The translations under genes were made by a program, and so were the position numbers. DNA of 64,000 nucleotides from Squalus acanthias (lineage: Eukaryota), in contig CM059432.1 of NCBI GenBank assembly GCA_030390025.1, positions 42,348,001-42,412,000 on the forward strand, given 5' to 3'. How positions within the stretch are numbered: the first letter of the stretch is position 1; every line of letters begins with the position of its first letter. This document shows positions 21,399 to 29,587 of this stretch, in pieces. The notes beneath the pieces were generated by a model, which did no database searches, was not told where the DNA came from, and saw only the letters and a list, made by a program, of their open reading frames with translations.

Positions 21399-23923
21399 AT
21401 GGATAGTCAAAGGCAGAGGGCTGCACCACAATTTTCTGACACATCCCTGCATACTCTGGTGGAGGCAGGGAGAGCACGCAGGGAGGTCGTGTTCCCTGCA
21501 GGTAGGCGCAGGAGACTTCTAAAAGACACCAAAAGAGCCTGGCTGGATATAACAGAGGAGGTCAGCAGCAGGGATGTGGTCAGGAGGAGCAGGATCCAGT
21601 GCAGGAAACTATTCAATGATCTCCTGAGGTCAGGAAAGGTGAGTGCAATGCTACACCCACCTTCATCCTGATGTGCCTGTCACCACATCCACATCACTCT
21701 GCCTTCCCTACCCTACTCCTGCACATCATTCCTCACACCAACATACCTTGCACGTCCACCTATCCCTCTCTCTATGTACATACTCACATCCCCATCGGAC
21801 TAACCACCCCTGACACTCACCCTCATCCTAATGCAATTATAGCAAGTAACACCACAGAAGGAGGCCATTTGGCATTGTCACCCCACTCTCTCGTAGTCAC
21901 CCTATACAGATGTGACCCAACCATTTCTTACATTCATTCCATCACTCTCACTCAAAGTTCTCTTCTTTCCCTCCTTGCAGGAGAAAAGAGCCCATAACAT
22001 GCGGGAGATGCAGAGAACCAGAGGTGGCCCTTCAGTATTCACCCAACTAACACCAGCACAGGTGGGGGCCCTGGAGATATCGGGATTTGCAGAGCTGCTG
22101 GCAGTGGGAGATGGAGAGAGGTGCCCATCCCAACAACCTAGTGACAGAATTACATCTCAATCAGCCACATGGCATACAACAGTCACTCATATGGTGACTG
22201 ACATCAGCAGCCAGTGAAATGTCATCATGTGCATAATGGTAACGTAAGAACATAAGAAATAGGAGCAGGAGTAGGCCATTTGGCCCTTCGAGCCTGCTCC
22301 GCCATTCAATAAGATCATGGCTGATTTTCTACCTCATCTCCACTTTCCTGCACTATCCCCATATCCCTTAATTCCCTTAATATTCAAAAATCTATCGATC
22401 TCTGTCTTGAATATACTCAACGACTGAGCCTCCACAACCCTCTGGGGTAGAGAATTCCAAAGATTCACCACCCTCTGAATGAAGAAATTTCTCCTCATCT
22501 CAGTCCTAAATGGCCGACCCCTTATTCTGAGACTGTGACCCCTGGTTCCAAACTCCCCAGCCATGGGAAACATCCTCCCTGCATCTACCCTGTCAAGTCC
22601 TGTAAGAATTTTGTATGTTTCAATGAGATCACCTCTCATTCTTCTAAACTCTAGAGAATATAGGCCTAGTCTACTCAATCTCTCCTCATAGGACAATCCC
22701 CCCATCCCAGGAATCAGTCTGGTGAGCCTTCGTTCCACTCCCTCTGTGGCAAGTATATCCTTCCTTAGGTAAGGAGACCAAAACTGTACACAATACTCCA
22801 GGTGTGGTCTCACCAGGGCCCTATATAATTGCAGTAAGACGTCTTTACTCTTATACTCAAATCCCCTTGTAATAAGGGCCAACATAACATTTGCTTTCCT
22901 AATTGCTTGCTGTACCTGCATGTTAACTTTCAGTGATTCATGTACAAGGACACCCAGGTCCCTCTGAACACCAACATTTCCCAATCTCTCACCATTTAAA
23001 AAATACTCTGCTTTTCTATTTTCCTACCAAAGTGGATAACTTCACATTTCTCCACATTATATTCCATTTGCCATGTTCTTGCCTATTCACTTAGCCTGTC
23101 TATATCCCCTTGAAGCCTCCTTGCATCCTCCTCATAACTTACATTCCCACCCAGCTTTGTATCATCAGCAAATTTGGATATATTACATTTGGTCCCCTCA
23201 TCCAAATCATTGATGTAGATTATGAATAGCTGAGGCCCAAGCACTGATCCTTGCGGTACCCCACTAGTTACAGCCTGCCAACCCGAAAATGACCCGTTTA
23301 TTCCTACTCTCTGTTTTCTGTCCGTTAACCAATCCTCAATCCATGCTGGTATATTACCGCCAATCCATGAGTCCTAATATTGTTTAATAACCTCTTGTGT
23401 GGCACCTTATCGAATGCCTTCTGAACGTTACCCATTCTTATTATAACACTTCTAATTAATCTCTTTACTCTCCCATTGGTCCATCAAGTGCCCCCCCCCC
23501 CCCACCCACTGTCCCCAGTCAGAGGGTGAAGACGGCTCCTCAGAGGAAGCTTCACCTCTGCAAGGTGCTCTCCAGCTCCTTGCTAGCAGGGAAGTGCGGG
23601 TGGCCCATGAGAGGGATGATGGTGAGAGGGGACATGCAAGTGGGGGCTCTTCTCAAAGCGCTCACACTTCTCCCCCATTGCCTCCCCCTCAGTCAGTGCC
23701 CCACATGCTTCCTCGGATCCCAATGGCCAAGTTTGCCCCTGCACAGACGCAGGAGGAGCAGACTTTGGCGGGGCCATCACAGGCTCCAAAACCCAGAGGA
23801 CGTCTGCCAAAAATGTCTAACGAGTTGCAGCAGGGAAATGAGCAGCCTGCCTCTACTTCTGCTGAAGCTACAGGGGTTGCACCTCGTAGAAGCACTCGGA
23901 AAAGAAAAAAGACACAAAAGTAG
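21399..23923 (+). pseudogene. Harbinger Myb/SANT-like gene, interrupted by CR1
   Basis: Exon 1 21399-21638 (MDSQRQRAAPQFSD..W..IQCRKLFNDLLRSGK|gtgagt). Exon 2 starts at 21981 (ttgcag|EKRAHN). The last-exon remnant ends AGPSQAPKPRGR..RRSTRKRKKTQK*. Confidence 0.8.
22246..23423 (-). mobile_element. 5'-truncated CR1 LINE
   Basis: RT C-terminal ORF 22334-22984 (RDLGV..RPHLEYCVQFWSP..RRMRGDLIETYKI), an (AAGAACAT) tail, and a candidate AACGT TSD at 22241-22245 / 23424-23428. Confidence 0.93.
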
Positions 23924-25706
23924 ATGCACACGGGTATGCACATGGGTGCATGAACAAATGTTACTGTTAAGTTTCAGTTAATTTTGTGACACACATAAAT
24001 GTCTTTTTTTGCACCACTTTCTGGTCTTGTCCATTTTTGCCTGCTACCTTGGAAGCGGTTTTGTCACTTGGAGTGAATGGTGAGACATTACTTAACCTCG
24101 AGCACTGGGGGTTTGGGTGAGAGGAATGGCTGGTCATTGTAGGGATGCTTTATGGTGTTGTTGGGGGGGTAACTTAGTACAGCATGTGGCAGCCATGTGG
24201 CTGCTCTGGAGCAAGTTAAGTAAATCTGGCCATGATGAGGCCATCCTAGGCCTCCCGGGCAGCAATGTGCGCCACTGCTGGTGCCATCTCCACCTCAGGT
24301 TCCTCCTCCTGCTCCTCCTCACTGCTGTGCTATGTTGTGCAGCGCGCAGCAAATGACTATGATTCTGGAGATCCTGGCTGGTGCGTACTGAAGGGCGCCT
24401 CCAGATCTGTCAAGGCATCTGGAGCGCATCATCAGCATGCCTATTGCTTGCTCTATGACACATCTGATGGCATGTGGCTCTCATTATAACGCTCCTCGGC
24501 CTCAGTACTTGGCGTCCTCAAGAGTGTCATGAGCCACGTCTTCAGTGGATAGCCCTTGTCTCCAAACAGCCAGCCGATAAGTCTGTTTGGAGTAGCGAAG
24601 AGCTGAGGGAGGGTGGACTGGCACAACATGAAAGAGTCATGACAGCTGCCAGGGAATCTGCTGCACTCATGCATAATTATCTTTTTATGGTTGCAGACAA
24701 GCTGCACATTGAGGGAGTGGAAGCCCTTGCGGTTCACAAACACTCCTGGGTGATGCGGGGGTGCCTTCATGGCCACATGTGTGCAGTCGATGACGCCCTG
24801 CACCTGTGGGAAGACAGCCAGAACCGCAAAGCCGAGCGCCCGCTCAGTCGTCATCGCGTTGTGTTGCTACACCTTCCCTCGCCACTGTTCCACGCAGGCT
24901 CTGGCTTGAGAGTTGAAGTCCCTCAGATTTTTAGGTCTGCATGGCTGTGGTAGTAGAAGGCATTCTAGGAGATGCTCCATTGTTTGAAATGCCTCTCCGC
25001 AGTCACAGTCGGTAGTATCAATTTGGCTGTATCCCCACTTCTGCATGAGGGCTCTGCAGCAGCCAATACCAGTCCTGAGGCAATTGAGACACAGCCAAGT
25101 AGGCCAAGTCTCACTGGCTCCTGTTGGAAGAGATTCCTCTGTATCAAAAGATAGCTTGTGTGGCTTGTCTGCAGATCCTTTGACCAAGCATCTAGTCTAC
25201 AGCTGTGGGAATTACATTCCAAGGGCTGGACAGCATGTAAGAAACTGCTCCTGGAATTGAGCCTCTTAGTTGCTGGCTCGAATTGAAAAAGTGGATGACG
25301 GGGATCACCTTTCCACTCTTGATGAAACTCGCTTTCTTATGAAAGGTGGGGCAATACCAGCAAGCAGGTAAAGATCATCCACCTTCATAGGTTTCAGGCA
25401 GCCAGAAATAGCACTATGGGCTGCATTGAGGACTGGATCCATCTTCTTGGCATGTGAGGAGCGTTCCCAGACTGGACAGGCATATTCAGCTGCTGAATAG
25501 CACAGGGCAAGGGCAATAGTTTGTAAGGTCCTTGGGTCAGTTTCCCATTTAGAGTTGGACAACTTCCTTAAGAAGTTGTTTCTGGCTCCCACCTTCGACT
25601 TTGCTTTGATGACATGATCTTTGGAGTTGAGGGCACGATCTAATGTTACGCCAAGGTATATTGGCTTAGAGTTGTTTGCCAGTCTTCGCCCATACCACCA
25701 GACATT

Positions 25707-26467
25707 GGCCCAGAAATTGGACTTCGATGGTTGCCGCGGGGGTAAGGATCCCCCGCGATATCGCACTCCGCGCCTGCCTTTATGGTTTTGGCCCACATGA
25801 ACTTCTGCTCCTGGGCCTCTCCCTGGTGCCGGCGCGCAGTGTGTGCGTGTCCCAGAGGCGCAGTTAGTTCGATGCGACCACTGGGATCACGTGGGCCAGT
25901 TAGAGCCAATGGCAGCACACCATCTTTCATTCATAGTTTTGACAGGAGAACTGTCAAAGCTATGAATACAACTTGCCCCCAAAAGAACAGCTAAACCTCA
26001 ATTAAATTAAAAAAAACATCACATTAATAAAATAACTATAGTTAAATAAATTAACCACTTTAAACAAAAATTTAAATTTTTGAAAAAATTTAAATTCTTT
26101 TTAAAAGTTATAAAAATAAACTTACCTTTCTTTAAAGTCTCTAAAAAAGATAAACCTGTTGAAAAATTTTTAAAATAATACTTAATTAACTACTTACCTT
26201 GTTAAAAGGGGGTCTTACGCCTCCTTTCTTCATGTGTAAAATCTTCAACACTTACCTTCGCGTTCAAACCTGGAAAAAAAACTAAGTGTGCTGCGTGCGC
26301 GCAGCCTGTAGTGCGCACGCAGTTCACTTAGGAACCGCCCCCTTCGCAATATCGGAAGTGCCGGTTTCCCGCGCATGCGCAGTGCATGCAGGAAACCGGC
26401 ACTTCGGGACCGAATATGGGTGAGTACACAGTGCGTACTCTCCCGTATTCGGACGAATTTCTGGGCC
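25707..26467. mobile_element. Non-autonomous Harbinger-type MITE, 761 bp
   Basis: Perfect 12-bp TIRs GGCCCAGAAATT / AATTTCTGGGCC and an ATT TSD (25704-25706, 26468-26470). Removing it restores the LINE reading ANREHN-VWWYGRRL. Confidence 0.93.
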
Positions 26468-28502
26468 ATTATGTTCTCGGTTTGCATCTCTGTTCTTAAG
26501 ATGAAAAGCACTGATCTGTGTCTTTTCAGGGTTGGCTCGCAGATGATTGGTCGCATAGTAGTTGGTTAGCTCAGCAAGTGCATCGCCAAGGGACTTCTCT
26601 ACTTTATCAAAGGATTGGTCCTGAGATGCTATGCACAGATCATTGGCATAGAGGAAACTTCTGGTGTGTGGATGGATGGGCTGGTTGTTGGTATAGATGT
26701 TAAACAGCAAGGGTGCGAGAACACTACCTTGAGGTAACCCATTCTTCTGTCTGCGCCATCTGCTTCACTTGCCGCTGAGGTCAGTAAAGAAACATCTGTT
26801 GGCCAGCATGTTGCACATCAGCTCAGTCAATCTGGCATCTTTTGTTATGTGGAATACCTTCTGCACAAGAATCCGATGATTGACCATGTCATATGCAGCA
26901 GATAAATCCACAAAGGCTGCACCTGTTATTAGCCCAATCTCATAGCCATCCTCGATAAATTGGGTCAGATTTAGAAGCTGGCTTGTGCAGTATATTCCTG
27001 GCCTGAATCCTGCTTGTTCAGGGATAAGACATTCATCTACAATTCAGGATGAGTCTCTCAAACAGTTTATAGGTGTGGCATAACAGGGAGATTGGCCTGA
27101 AGCTCTTAGGGTTGGCTGGGTCTTTGCCGGACTTCAGAACTGCCACTATTCTTGCTTGTCTCCACAACTTAGGGATCTTGTTGGTGGCTAAGCAATTGTT
27201 GAGCATGTCAAGTAGCCATAGTAAAGCCACAGGCCCAAAATGCTTGATTTGATCGCAGAGAATATCATCAAGTCCAGCTGCTTTGTTGTTTTTCCTCACT
27301 TTGATACCAAAGAACACCTCACTCATGTTGAAGGGTCTTGTAAAGTCAGAATCCTCTTTATCAAGTCATTTCCTCGCATACTGATGGTTTTCCATGCTTT
27401 CCAGCTGTGCGTCATATCTGTGGATTCGATCAGTTCTTGCCACTTCTTGCGTCGCTCATCTGATATGGTATCAACAAGCCTTTCTCCAGCTTCCAGAGTA
27501 TCATCTCCAAAGGGATCTGCCTGGAAACAGTTGGTATAGACCTCATAGAGGTCTTTAGTATCCTCCGATAGTCCTGGGATGTAGTTTGTCCGGCACCCTC
27601 GGGGAATATTATTTCTAGAGGAAGTTTTCACCATCTCTACAAACACGCCGTAATGTTCTGGAGAAGCTGGGGTGTCTTTGAGTGCAGCATCCAGGTAAGT
27701 AGAGAACCTTTCCCAGTTTGTCTTCTTCAAATGAAGCGTTGGCGGAGGGGAACTGAGTGACGAGCAACTTCTGCATTGATCTTGATTCCAATTGGTCGAT
27801 GTTGGGAGTTTGGAATAGGATCCAAAACAATTTTCTCACATTGGTTAGCTGTGCGGTTAGAAGCAAGCACCAAGTCTGAGTTATAATCATGTCTCCATCG
27901 GCTGCTGCTGAAGGAGTTTTGCATCATGAATGAGAGACAGCTGACTTGCCTCTAACCGGCTTTCTACTAGTTCTGCATCCTCATTCGTCTCCGAGTATCC
28001 CCAGTGCACGCTGTGGCTATTGAAGTCGCCAATCACAACATTTACTGGGTTGTCAGTAAAGGCATCTGGGAAAGCAAACTGCTCATTAGGTGGCGTATAT
28101 ATACTGCACTGACTGAAACCCCCATAAGCTGGATGTTAAGGATTTCAATATTAGCAAGTTCTGACATGGAGGATTTATCAACAGCAACTCTGCTTCGGAT
28201 GAAAACGACACTGCCATACTCATGGAGTCTCTCTATCACGACCATGGCTGGATGCGTGTAGCTCCGCGGTATGTATCTTGTAGGCAAAGGATGTCACACT
28301 TGTTTCTTGTACATCTATCAGCCAATAAATGATGTTTGGCTGCTGACAGACCTTCAATGTTGGCAGAGATGATAGTCAGTGCCGGCCCTGATGAGGGCCC
28401 AAGCTTTCGACATTGACACCCGTCGCCGTCTTGGTCTCGGCTTGACTGCAGATTCATTCTTCACCCTCCAATACCAGATCAGGAAAGTTGGGTGTAGCGT
28501 TG

Positions 28503-28568
28503 TAGAAGGATTCACAAGCGAAAAACCTGATGGGGCCGCAACGTGAATGCTCCTTCTATGAGCCCCGC
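28503..28568 (-). ncRNA. HDV-like (CPEB3-like) self-cleaving ribozyme, probably inactivated
   Basis: GCGGGGCT CA TAGAAGGA GCA TTCACGT TGC GGCCCC AT CAGG TTTTTCG CTTG TGAA TCCTTCTA. P1, P2, P3 and P4 all pair in HDV order, and the motif starts at the first base of the LINE. Confidence 0.8.
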
Positions 28569-29587
28569 CACTCAGTAACACTGGCCTCATCAGTGGCAAA
28601 ATTGATATAATTGGCTGACTTGTAAAACATGGCATCGGTCACCTGGGTGATGCATCTGTGGGCGGCCGACTGTGAGATCCAGCAAATGTCTGTGCAGATC
28701 CCTGGAAGGAGCCTGAGGCGAAGAAGTTGAGGGCGGTGGTGACTTTGACAGCGACTGGCAAGTTGTGTCCACCAGGCCCTCTGGGCCGCAGGTCTTGTTC
28801 CAGCAAGCTACAAATGTCTGCGACGACCTGGCGCCATAGCCTGAGCCTCCTGAAGCACTGCTGCTCAGTCATGCTGAGGAAGCTCATCCTCTGCCTGTAT
28901 ACCCTGTGTTGGGGGTATCGCCTCTGGCACGCTGCAGCCCTGCGGTGGCTCCCTCTCTCCTGTGGAGCATCAGGTCATTGAAGAGAAGGCTGCTGCTGCG
29001 GGTGGTGGGGCTCATCTTGGTCCGATTCTGAGGTGAGACAGTATAAGCAGCACCCATGCTGATGTAGTAGATGGCAGGTAAAGTAGAGATCAGATGGCCA
29101 AGTGGCTTCCGAGGTTGCTGAAATGACCTGCAAACTGCTGACATCTAAATTTGTGGACAAAATGGAGTGAGCAAGAGCCTTTCCATGAGGCAAGTAATGA
29201 GGTGTAATGTTGCAGTATTTATGTGCTTTTCCCAGCTCTCAATGAATGGACTCGCCAATGGCCACTGAGCTTCCGCCTCCCCTTCACAGCCGAGGCGCCC
29301 GAGTGTGTGAATCCTGCGCTCCTGCAGGAAAAATCAAAAGCTGGCATTAAAAACCCTCTTAAGGGTCTCTCAACAAGCAGTGAATGACTTGAATGAGGTC
29401 GCCCGCCTCTGCTGATCGGATTCGTGTCGCGCCTTCAAAGCCGCCCGAGTTAAATGCGTGAGGCGGCGGGATGACGCTCTCGCAATTTACGAGATTTTTA
29501 CTGCCAACCTGCCCCCAAACCTGCATGCTCGGCAATGAGAAAATTCTGGCCAGAGAGTTGTATGCATATGTACTTTCATGCATGTTC

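Follow-up and report, generated by a model that had tools for sequence, protein, structure and literature searches.

A probable CPEB3-type HDV-fold ribozyme, now decayed, at the 5′ end of a Vingi-like LINE of Squalus acanthias

Introduction

HDV-like ribozymes at the 5′ ends of LINEs have been known since 2010–2011. In the L1Tc/Ingi elements of trypanosomes, the ribozyme L1TcRz is described, in the available text of PMC3185411 and PMC3383444, as making up the opening ~77 nt of an APE-type LINE with a single ORF; the internally deleted, non-autonomous NARTc has it too, and it frees the element from longer transcripts (PMC6765202, available portion). For R2, RTE, and Baggins/LOA, an HDV-like ribozyme that sets the 5′ end after co-transcription is described in the accessible parts of PMC6765202 and PMC5786205. 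The shark LINE considered here appears to be alike in these respects, and in its proposed way of working it belongs with the ribozyme-headed LINEs already described. It differs from the L1TcRz system in host and in primary sequence, and from R2, RTE, and Baggins/LOA in clade and, again, in sequence. Moreover, R2 is site-specific in rDNA, whereas the shark LINE lies in a DNA transposon and its other copies are found at unrelated sites. It constitutes a further ribozyme-headed LINE, in a Vingi-like clade.

Vingi elements have been described as having one ORF of 993 aa (PMC3708506, in part), and as lacking RNase H and forming the sister clade of Ingi, which has an RNase H domain (PMC13708176, in part). 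They are accompanied by mini-elements and by tRNA-headed SINEs in which the LINE's first ~74 nt and its 3′ end are retained (available text of PMC5786205, PMC4494074, and PMC3708506), as with SINE2-1_ACar and SINE2-1_AMi (Kojima 2011, 2018). Judged by sequence against these published descriptions, the shark LINE is consistent with a Vingi-like element, and both kinds of derivative have a counterpart in the shark genome, the mini-element in locus L019 and the SINE in a repeat that we call SINE B. In the available portions of the same three papers, the Vingi 5′ end is not called a ribozyme, nor does Vingi appear among the LINE clades with a ribozyme in the corresponding portion of the 2018 survey. 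The matter has a practical side as well, in that Vingi-based gene-insertion tools keep the native 5′ UTR (PMC13708176, available text), and that UTR may hold a self-cleaving ribozyme.

The mammalian CPEB3 ribozyme (Rfam family RF00622) is a single conserved locus in a CPEB3 intron, whereas the shark form is multi-copy and found at LINE 5′ ends and inside a SINE. To our knowledge, earlier work has regarded it as an RNA of one locus whose conservation is confined to mammals. In the literature that we searched, we found no report of a CPEB3-type ribozyme carried by a LINE or SINE or occurring in a non-mammal (an earlier mention is possible), and no prior proposal of a LINE-lineage origin for the mammalian ribozyme was found in the searchable literature. 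What is new in this work is the sequence type. Here the CPEB3 family, with scores exceeding its Rfam cut-off by as much as 25 bits, takes the form of a retroelement module in many copies, in a cartilaginous fish and in a second host.

The window analyzed here is a 64,000-nt stretch of the S. acanthias assembly GCA_030390025.1 (contig CM059432.1, positions 42,348,001 to 42,412,000), and unprefixed coordinates below refer to it. Our main reading, to which we give a probability of roughly 0.85, is that the minus strand of 28503-28566 is a dead CPEB3-type HDV-fold ribozyme forming the first 64 nt of a compact, single-ORF, Vingi-like LINE that encodes APE and RT.

Results and discussion

Rereading of the minus strand from 28566 to 28503 gave the same letters and the same stem placement as the first-pass annotation of this DNA, which had been made from the sequence alone. 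P1 pairs GGGGCT (28566-28561) with GGCCCC (28537-28532); P2 pairs TAGAAGGA (28558-28551) with TCCTTCTA (28510-28503); and P3 pairs GCA (28550-28548) with TGC (28540-28538), the loop L3 between the two P3 strands being TTCACGT. P4 is formed by CAGG with CTTG, and the J4/2 junction reads TGAA, with its T at 28514. The elements follow the order P1-P2-P3-L3-P3′-P1′-P4-J4/2-P2′, so that the nested double pseudoknot is present in the window copy. The covariance-model scan that the annotation had asked for (cmscan, whole window) placed the RF00622 CPEB3_ribozyme at 28576-28504 on the minus strand with 38.9 bits against a gathering cut-off of 35 (E 7.3e-07), and among the 4227 Rfam families scanned this was the sole one above its gathering score in the window. 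Features of the CPEB3 ribozyme that the annotation had named, namely the UUCACGU loop, a G-rich P1, and CGAA, agree with the Rfam RF00622 consensus. The assignment of 28503..28566 (minus strand) as a decayed CPEB3-type ribozyme is based on this match, on the relatives, and on the pair counts described below.

The window score is modest, and taken by itself it could be the product of chance resemblance in repeat-rich DNA. We rejected this, and consider it almost certainly wrong, on the strength of the E-value, of a 19-nt ribozyme core pattern that occurs once in the window and in none of 100 shuffles, and of the copies found genome-wide, where 58 further matches reach up to 59.6 bits and bear out the CPEB3-like HDV fold as first proposed. 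Compensatory changes in the stems argue in the same direction, as does finding the ribozyme placed alike in another LINE family of this genome and in a related LINE on metagenome contigs.

The window copy departs from its relatives at several points. The first base of J4/2, where the catalytic cytosine is expected, is U (28514). At the border of P1 and J1/2 there is an extra base, GGGGCTCA against GGGGCCA in the relatives, which the Infernal alignment renders as two non-standard P1 pairs; the register of the first-pass annotation, with a U-G pair in P1, is an equally good reading. Compared with the majority sequence of its own sub-family (family A, below), one P3 pair is changed on both sides, from G-C to A-U, P4 holds one U-G wobble, and the first base of J1/4 is A instead of G, a position at which family A is itself split. 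The differences in P3, P4, P1/J1-2, and J1/4 should be compatible with an intact fold. A decay of P1.1, which the annotation had also considered, is possible. Having lost the catalytic C, the copy should no longer self-cleave; the cleavage site predicted for the module is 5′ of G28566.

The insertion site could be defined from the host sequence. The LINE interrupts the transposase gene (DDE_Tnp_4) of a Harbinger/PIF element, and both are in the same orientation, so that the Harbinger gene could supply read-through transcripts. The upstream half of this gene lies at 28577..28974 (minus strand; an ORF whose continuity with the downstream half is established through paralogues), and the downstream half at 24453..24839 (minus strand; Pfam PF13359, E 6.4e-19). 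In three uninterrupted Harbinger paralogues, the empty site reads ...GTTACTGAG[C/T]GGGCGCTC..., and the target-site duplication is thus 9 bp, ACTGAGYGG. Its 5′ copy (ACTGAGTGG) occupies 28568..28576 on the minus strand, from the alignment with the three paralogues and the 3′ junction, and its 3′ copy (ACTGAGCGG) occupies 24840..24848 on the same strand, from the empty-site alignment and the sequence. G28568 is therefore part of the duplication, and a single extra C (28567, minus strand) precedes the first G of P1 at 28566. This C is absent from the empty site and is not conserved before P1 in other copies; it was either added without a template or represents position −1 of the RNA. Hence the initial claim that the ribozyme stands at the exact 5′ end of the LINE holds to within 1 nt, whereas the 8-bp duplication proposed with it has to be extended to 9 bp.

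The whole LINE copy spans 24849..28567 on the minus strand and, from Pfam, blastx, and the ends of other copies, is a single-ORF APE and RT element with a frame broken several times and no poly(A). Its own sequence amounts to ~2.95 kb. The fragments match Exo_endo_phos_2 and RVT_1 in Pfam, and by blastx they cover residues 3-829 of a 902-aa relative (P0002) and reach residue 939 of a 939-aa relative (P0084), so that the broken window copy aligns along residues 3-939 of full-length relatives. The reading frame opens near 28448 and is shifted at several points, with P0002 residue 3 aligning from 28442, which leaves 28449..28502 (minus strand, blastx) as the short remainder of the 5′ UTR between ribozyme and ORF. 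Family copies terminate at window positions 24847-24849 without a poly(A) tail. Within the LINE, 25704..26476 is a foreign repeat that is not part of the element, recognized from the gap in the blastx path between 26477 and 25703; 65 residues adjoining it match more than 100 genomic places at 57–97% identity. As for the surroundings, the Harbinger family has 39 further places at 93–94% identity among 40 scored (out of 2637 first-look candidates), and it seems far younger than the compared LINE copies, which are about 86–90% identical. A CR1-like LINE fragment at 22334-23373 (minus strand) has closest named relatives that are all from cartilaginous fishes, at 66–74% identity, with birds and turtles at 41–50%.

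A search of the 3.71-Gb assembly with RF00622, in which the best 59 of ~178,790 rough first-look candidates were scored, gave 58 above the cut-off, at 36.5–59.6 bits. The window copy is itself absent from those 59, so the list is not exhaustive and the genome holds at least 58 copies. No RF00622 match above the cut-off was found in 14 control prokaryote genomes. The copies fall into two groups: some form the 5′ ends of LINEs of two families, and the others belong to an abundant SINE. When the window copy was aligned with all 59 candidates (60 copies), three sub-families could be sorted: family A (n=5, including the window copy), with a P4 of CAGG, a 7-nt loop, and CCTG; family C (n=6, with two more 5′ ends from a DNA search), in which GGGGGCC pairs with GGCCTCT in P1 and P4 has 7 bp; and family B, the SINE, with 49 aligned copies. 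The second LINE family (L009) carries the ribozyme in the same place, and its protein is about 50% alike (41–69% by tblastx segment). A G stands at +1 throughout. The foot of P1 is a G-U pair in family C, in the metagenome element L088 (see below), and in the Rfam consensus, whereas family A, the window copy included, pairs G1 with C. A natural copy with all core features exists in L013 (G000:C5:116922090-116922163, minus strand), where an HDV fold descriptor finds the full fold and no other Rfam ribozyme family matches up to E 10.

The first-pass annotation had attributed the loss of the catalytic C in the window to CpG-type mutation and expected the family consensus to be intact, and this agrees with what the copies show: CGAA is the commonest J4/2 in all three sub-families. 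It is found in 3/5 copies of family A, 4/6 of family C, and 23/49 of SINE B, or 30/60 overall, shares that are upper estimates since the copies were chosen with the CPEB3 model, which rewards CGAA. Among the 30 exceptions are 15 with TGAA, 11 with CAAA, 2 with CGGA, and 2 with AGAA. Twenty-six of the 30 are thus TGAA or CAAA, as expected from CpG decay, and the U of the window copy can be regarded as ordinary CpG decay in a family that formerly had the catalytic C. No intact LINE copy was found, the longest open frame among 150 scored places being 451 aa, and no long LINE frame was present in L038, an extension of the L009 locus; with every examined LINE copy frame-broken, the family looks extinct in this genome.

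Covariation in the stems, which had been put forward as a test of the fold, was assessed by pair counts over 20 sequences (L088, 7 of family C, 5 of family A, and the remaining 7–8 of family B) and 25 pairs, including the pseudoknot stem P2. Standard pairs are formed in 84.3% of cells, against 30–51% with slid partners, and 11 pairs are changed on both sides, against 2–6 with slid partners; none of 500 shuffles reaches the observed pairing values. At the second position of P2, for example, the LINEs have A-U where the SINE has G-C. Two pairs of P2 and two of P4 have both partners replaced when the shark type is set against L088, and shark P2 departs from the Rfam consensus in three pairs, again with both bases changed in each. 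Because P2 is outside the Rfam structure line, its compensatory changes constitute support that is independent of the RF00622 match. Differences within a family are mostly neutral decay, and only the changes between families speak for selection on the fold.

The 5′ ends of independent copies bear on how the module works. In an all-versus-all comparison of 30 loci, the 7 LINE-type loci all begin to resemble other loci at the first G of P1, whereas in the 23 SINE loci the resemblance extends 11–256 nt further upstream. In L013, L031, and L008 (the last a member of family C), the junction between a short inverted 5′ piece and the LINE's 3′ part lies within 0–1 nt of the first P1 G; the inverted piece of L031 begins one base in, and in L013 the equivalent of window 28566-28483 is joined to the last 686 nt. 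Such inverted pieces fit twin priming, with a second cDNA running to the RNA end. L004 has a similar inverted form truncated by 37 nt, whereas L002 is collinear, with a truncation of about 15 nt. Finally, L019:1512-1680 is a bipartite mini-element of ~165 bp that joins the ribozyme and a piece of the 5′ UTR to the LINE 3′ end, with a likely flanking duplication (by eye), and it has the appearance of a forerunner of the SINE's LINE-derived portion.

The sequences show the fold and its conservation, its position at the first base of the element, its spread along with the element, and the loss of the catalytic base in the window copy; the other steps of the working mode that we propose are drawn from the known ribozyme-headed LINEs R2, RTE, and L1Tc (PMC6765202, available portion). 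The LINE would be transcribed within a longer RNA that starts upstream, here possibly from the Harbinger gene, and the ribozyme, by analogy with its family, would cut just 5′ of the first G of P1, freeing a LINE RNA with the folded ribozyme at its 5′ end. Reverse transcription to the end of that RNA would rebuild the entire ribozyme at each new insertion and would have independent copies begin at the first G of P1, which is where they are observed to begin. On the model of R2 and L1Tc, the fold may also aid uncapped translation or bind the element's protein. After insertion, the catalytic C of the window copy changed to U at a CpG and its ORF was broken. The module persists in the mini-element and in the SINE.

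A fixed 5′ end at one G would fit a transcription start site as well, and the fold could on that account be a non-cleaving, structured 5′ UTR acting as a promoter, a protein-binding site, or a translation element. There is precedent for a double function in the first 77 nt of L1Tc, described as both promoter and ribozyme in the available text of PMC3383444, and the SINE, which keeps the fold despite a shortened P1, indicates that the module has some use apart from cutting. Even so, we judge a purely structural role improbable: the catalytic C and the CGAA junction are the majority state in all three sub-families, the full HDV core is kept across LINE families that are only roughly half alike in protein, and the SINE, which must not self-cut, is the only form with a crippled P1.

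That SINE (SINE B; L010-L037 and L051-L079, 49 loci) is a repeat of ~360 bp, and none was seen in the window. Its head has tRNA-like A and B boxes and is followed by a body, then by the ribozyme module, and last by a tail of ~45 nt that, over 22/22 nt, matches the 3′ end of the family C LINE inverted beside the L008 ribozyme. The commonest form of P3/L3 is GCG TTCACGT CGC. In the Infernal alignment, P1 is two bases short on each strand, which leaves GGCC with GGCC, a stem of 4 bp, and none of the 49 copies starts at the GGCC of P1. The SINE looks tRNA-derived. ARAGORN called no tRNA in the heads of 17 SINE loci (apart from one unrelated call in L020) or in the majority sequence, so the tRNA origin rests on A-box-like and B-box-like motifs read by eye. 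An RNA transcribed from the SINE head and carrying a working ribozyme would lose its own head; a 4-bp P1 should prevent the RNA from cutting off its promoter head in this way, and the crippled stem would fit selection against cutting. The retention of the fold would likewise fit a further use beyond cutting. The SINE with its shortened P1 thus amounts to a natural experiment, in which the ribozyme is silenced and the fold retained.

Relatives outside the genome were collected with L047, which holds a 392-aa LINE open frame. Those with both endonuclease and RT domains are mostly about 900–1050 aa, and the named relatives include proteins from sea star (73% identical), amphioxus (68%), sea urchin, aphids, and Anolis (P0084, 56%). 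No RNase H Pfam domain appears in the precomputed domain lists of the 120 listed relatives, a likeness to Vingi and a difference from Ingi. The RT region is nearer to the sea-star protein (73%) and the amphioxus protein (68%), listed as P0002 and P0006, than to the second LINE family of the same genome (roughly half), and horizontal transfer or very slow change may lie behind this closeness.

An alignment of 20 relatives was used to fetch 80 metagenome loci, and the 20 with N-terminal coverage were scanned. One element, represented on metagenome contigs by L088, L089, and L090, has a CPEB3_ribozyme match of 55.6 bits that ends ~40 nt before the inferred ORF start. From G1 through J1/4, L088 matches the Rfam consensus at 35/37 positions, and at the 3′ end it matches at 10/11 (manual count); its P2, TAGCAGAA with TTCTGCTA, has 7/8 pairs as in the mammalian consensus. 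J4/2 is CTAA and the reading frame is broken. Three other metagenome LINEs have HDV-like sequences just upstream of the ORF (L123:1089-1161, L094:12-78, and L084:2722-2786, the last recognized only by a weak, sub-cut-off Rfam match). L123 and L084 match another Rfam HDV family weakly, at 33.1 and 30.9 bits against a cut-off of 44, and L123 and L094 are of a different sequence type, with P3 ACC/GGT and a loop of TTCT[G/C]GT. A strict HDV descriptor missed L084 and L094, and a relaxed version recovered L094 only. With the latter, complete folds were found in L088, L094, and L123, that is, in 3/16 upstream regions, against 0/16 reverse complements and 2/320 shuffles; that the complete fold is confined to 3 of these 16 metagenome relatives is a point that we count against our main reading. 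A covariance model (R1) built from 20 copies and run over 83 loci returned only the L088 element, itself in the model, and a weak match in L152 (18.8 bits).

The first-pass annotation had also raised the possibility that CPEB3-type ribozymes are related to this retroelement lineage. The two forms have the same fold and a near-identical core, the best shark copies scoring 59.6 bits against the cut-off of 35. Common to both are a G-rich P1 of 6–7 bp, P3 as GCG/CGC, a 7-nt L3 of UUCACGU with an ACGU palindrome, and a J4/2 of CGAA with the catalytic C first (feature list of the CPEB3 ribozyme from the available text of bioRxiv 10.1101/2022.09.22.508989). They differ in P2 and the outer part of P4, by compensatory changes, and in the G-U pair at the foot of P1, which family A lacks. 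Since the shark module lies inside a LINE within a Harbinger element, is multi-copy, and belongs to a cartilaginous-fish genome, it is a member of the same sequence family as the CPEB3 ribozyme and not its orthologue. The proposed kinship is strengthened by the second host and by the compensatory P2 changes, and it is not proven.

How such a likeness might have arisen can be read in more than one way. The LINE ribozyme could be of a working type and yet share no descent with that of mammals, the two having converged because the HDV fold constrains both. Few bases are invariant in HDV-like ribozymes, and a repeated origin has been proposed for them (PMC8256844, available text); the G-rich P1, CGAA, and part of L3 are also functionally constrained; and a search with a CPEB3 model among very many LINE lineages will pick the most CPEB3-like. 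Such convergence is possible and, in our estimation, less likely than not. Relatives of the same clade (L123, L094, and L084) differ in P1, P2, P3, and L3 and have no match to the CPEB3 model at E up to 1, so a CPEB3-like sequence is not forced by the fold. Moreover, the agreement of L088 with the consensus extends to P2, whose pairs are free to vary, and the three P2 pairs that separate the shark type from Rfam are each changed on both sides.

We lean somewhat towards the reading that the mammalian CPEB3 ribozyme is an exapted 5′-terminal ribozyme of a Vingi-type LINE, or of a mini-element or SINE carrying it, that inserted, in an early mammal, into the CPEB3 intron. According to the available text of PMC5753468, Vingi fossils are present in the human genome, and the Vingi lineage was thus part of mammalian ancestry. 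On the exaptation reading, the CPEB3 sequence type would be an old retroelement module, common to cartilaginous fishes and at least one other eukaryote, and it would be carried by retrotransposition, since the copied RNA still bears the ribozyme after cleavage. The SINEs, which keep the fold and disable P1, would then point to a second role beyond cutting. Capture of a host CPEB3 ribozyme by a LINE was also considered and is less likely, since LINE copies are found beyond mammals and reports of the host ribozyme are confined to them. Specialists are likely to be surprised most by the bearing of this work on where the CPEB3 ribozyme came from, and a retroelement origin is now directly testable in tetrapod genomes.

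Among the metagenome loci, the loop TTCACGT also occurs with other flanking stems, at L106:3650-3720, L129:1180-1240, L134:1300-1340, and L152:3693-3766 (minus strand), the P2 of L152 being GACAGGT with ACCTGTC. These four may represent a third, more distant ribozyme subtype.
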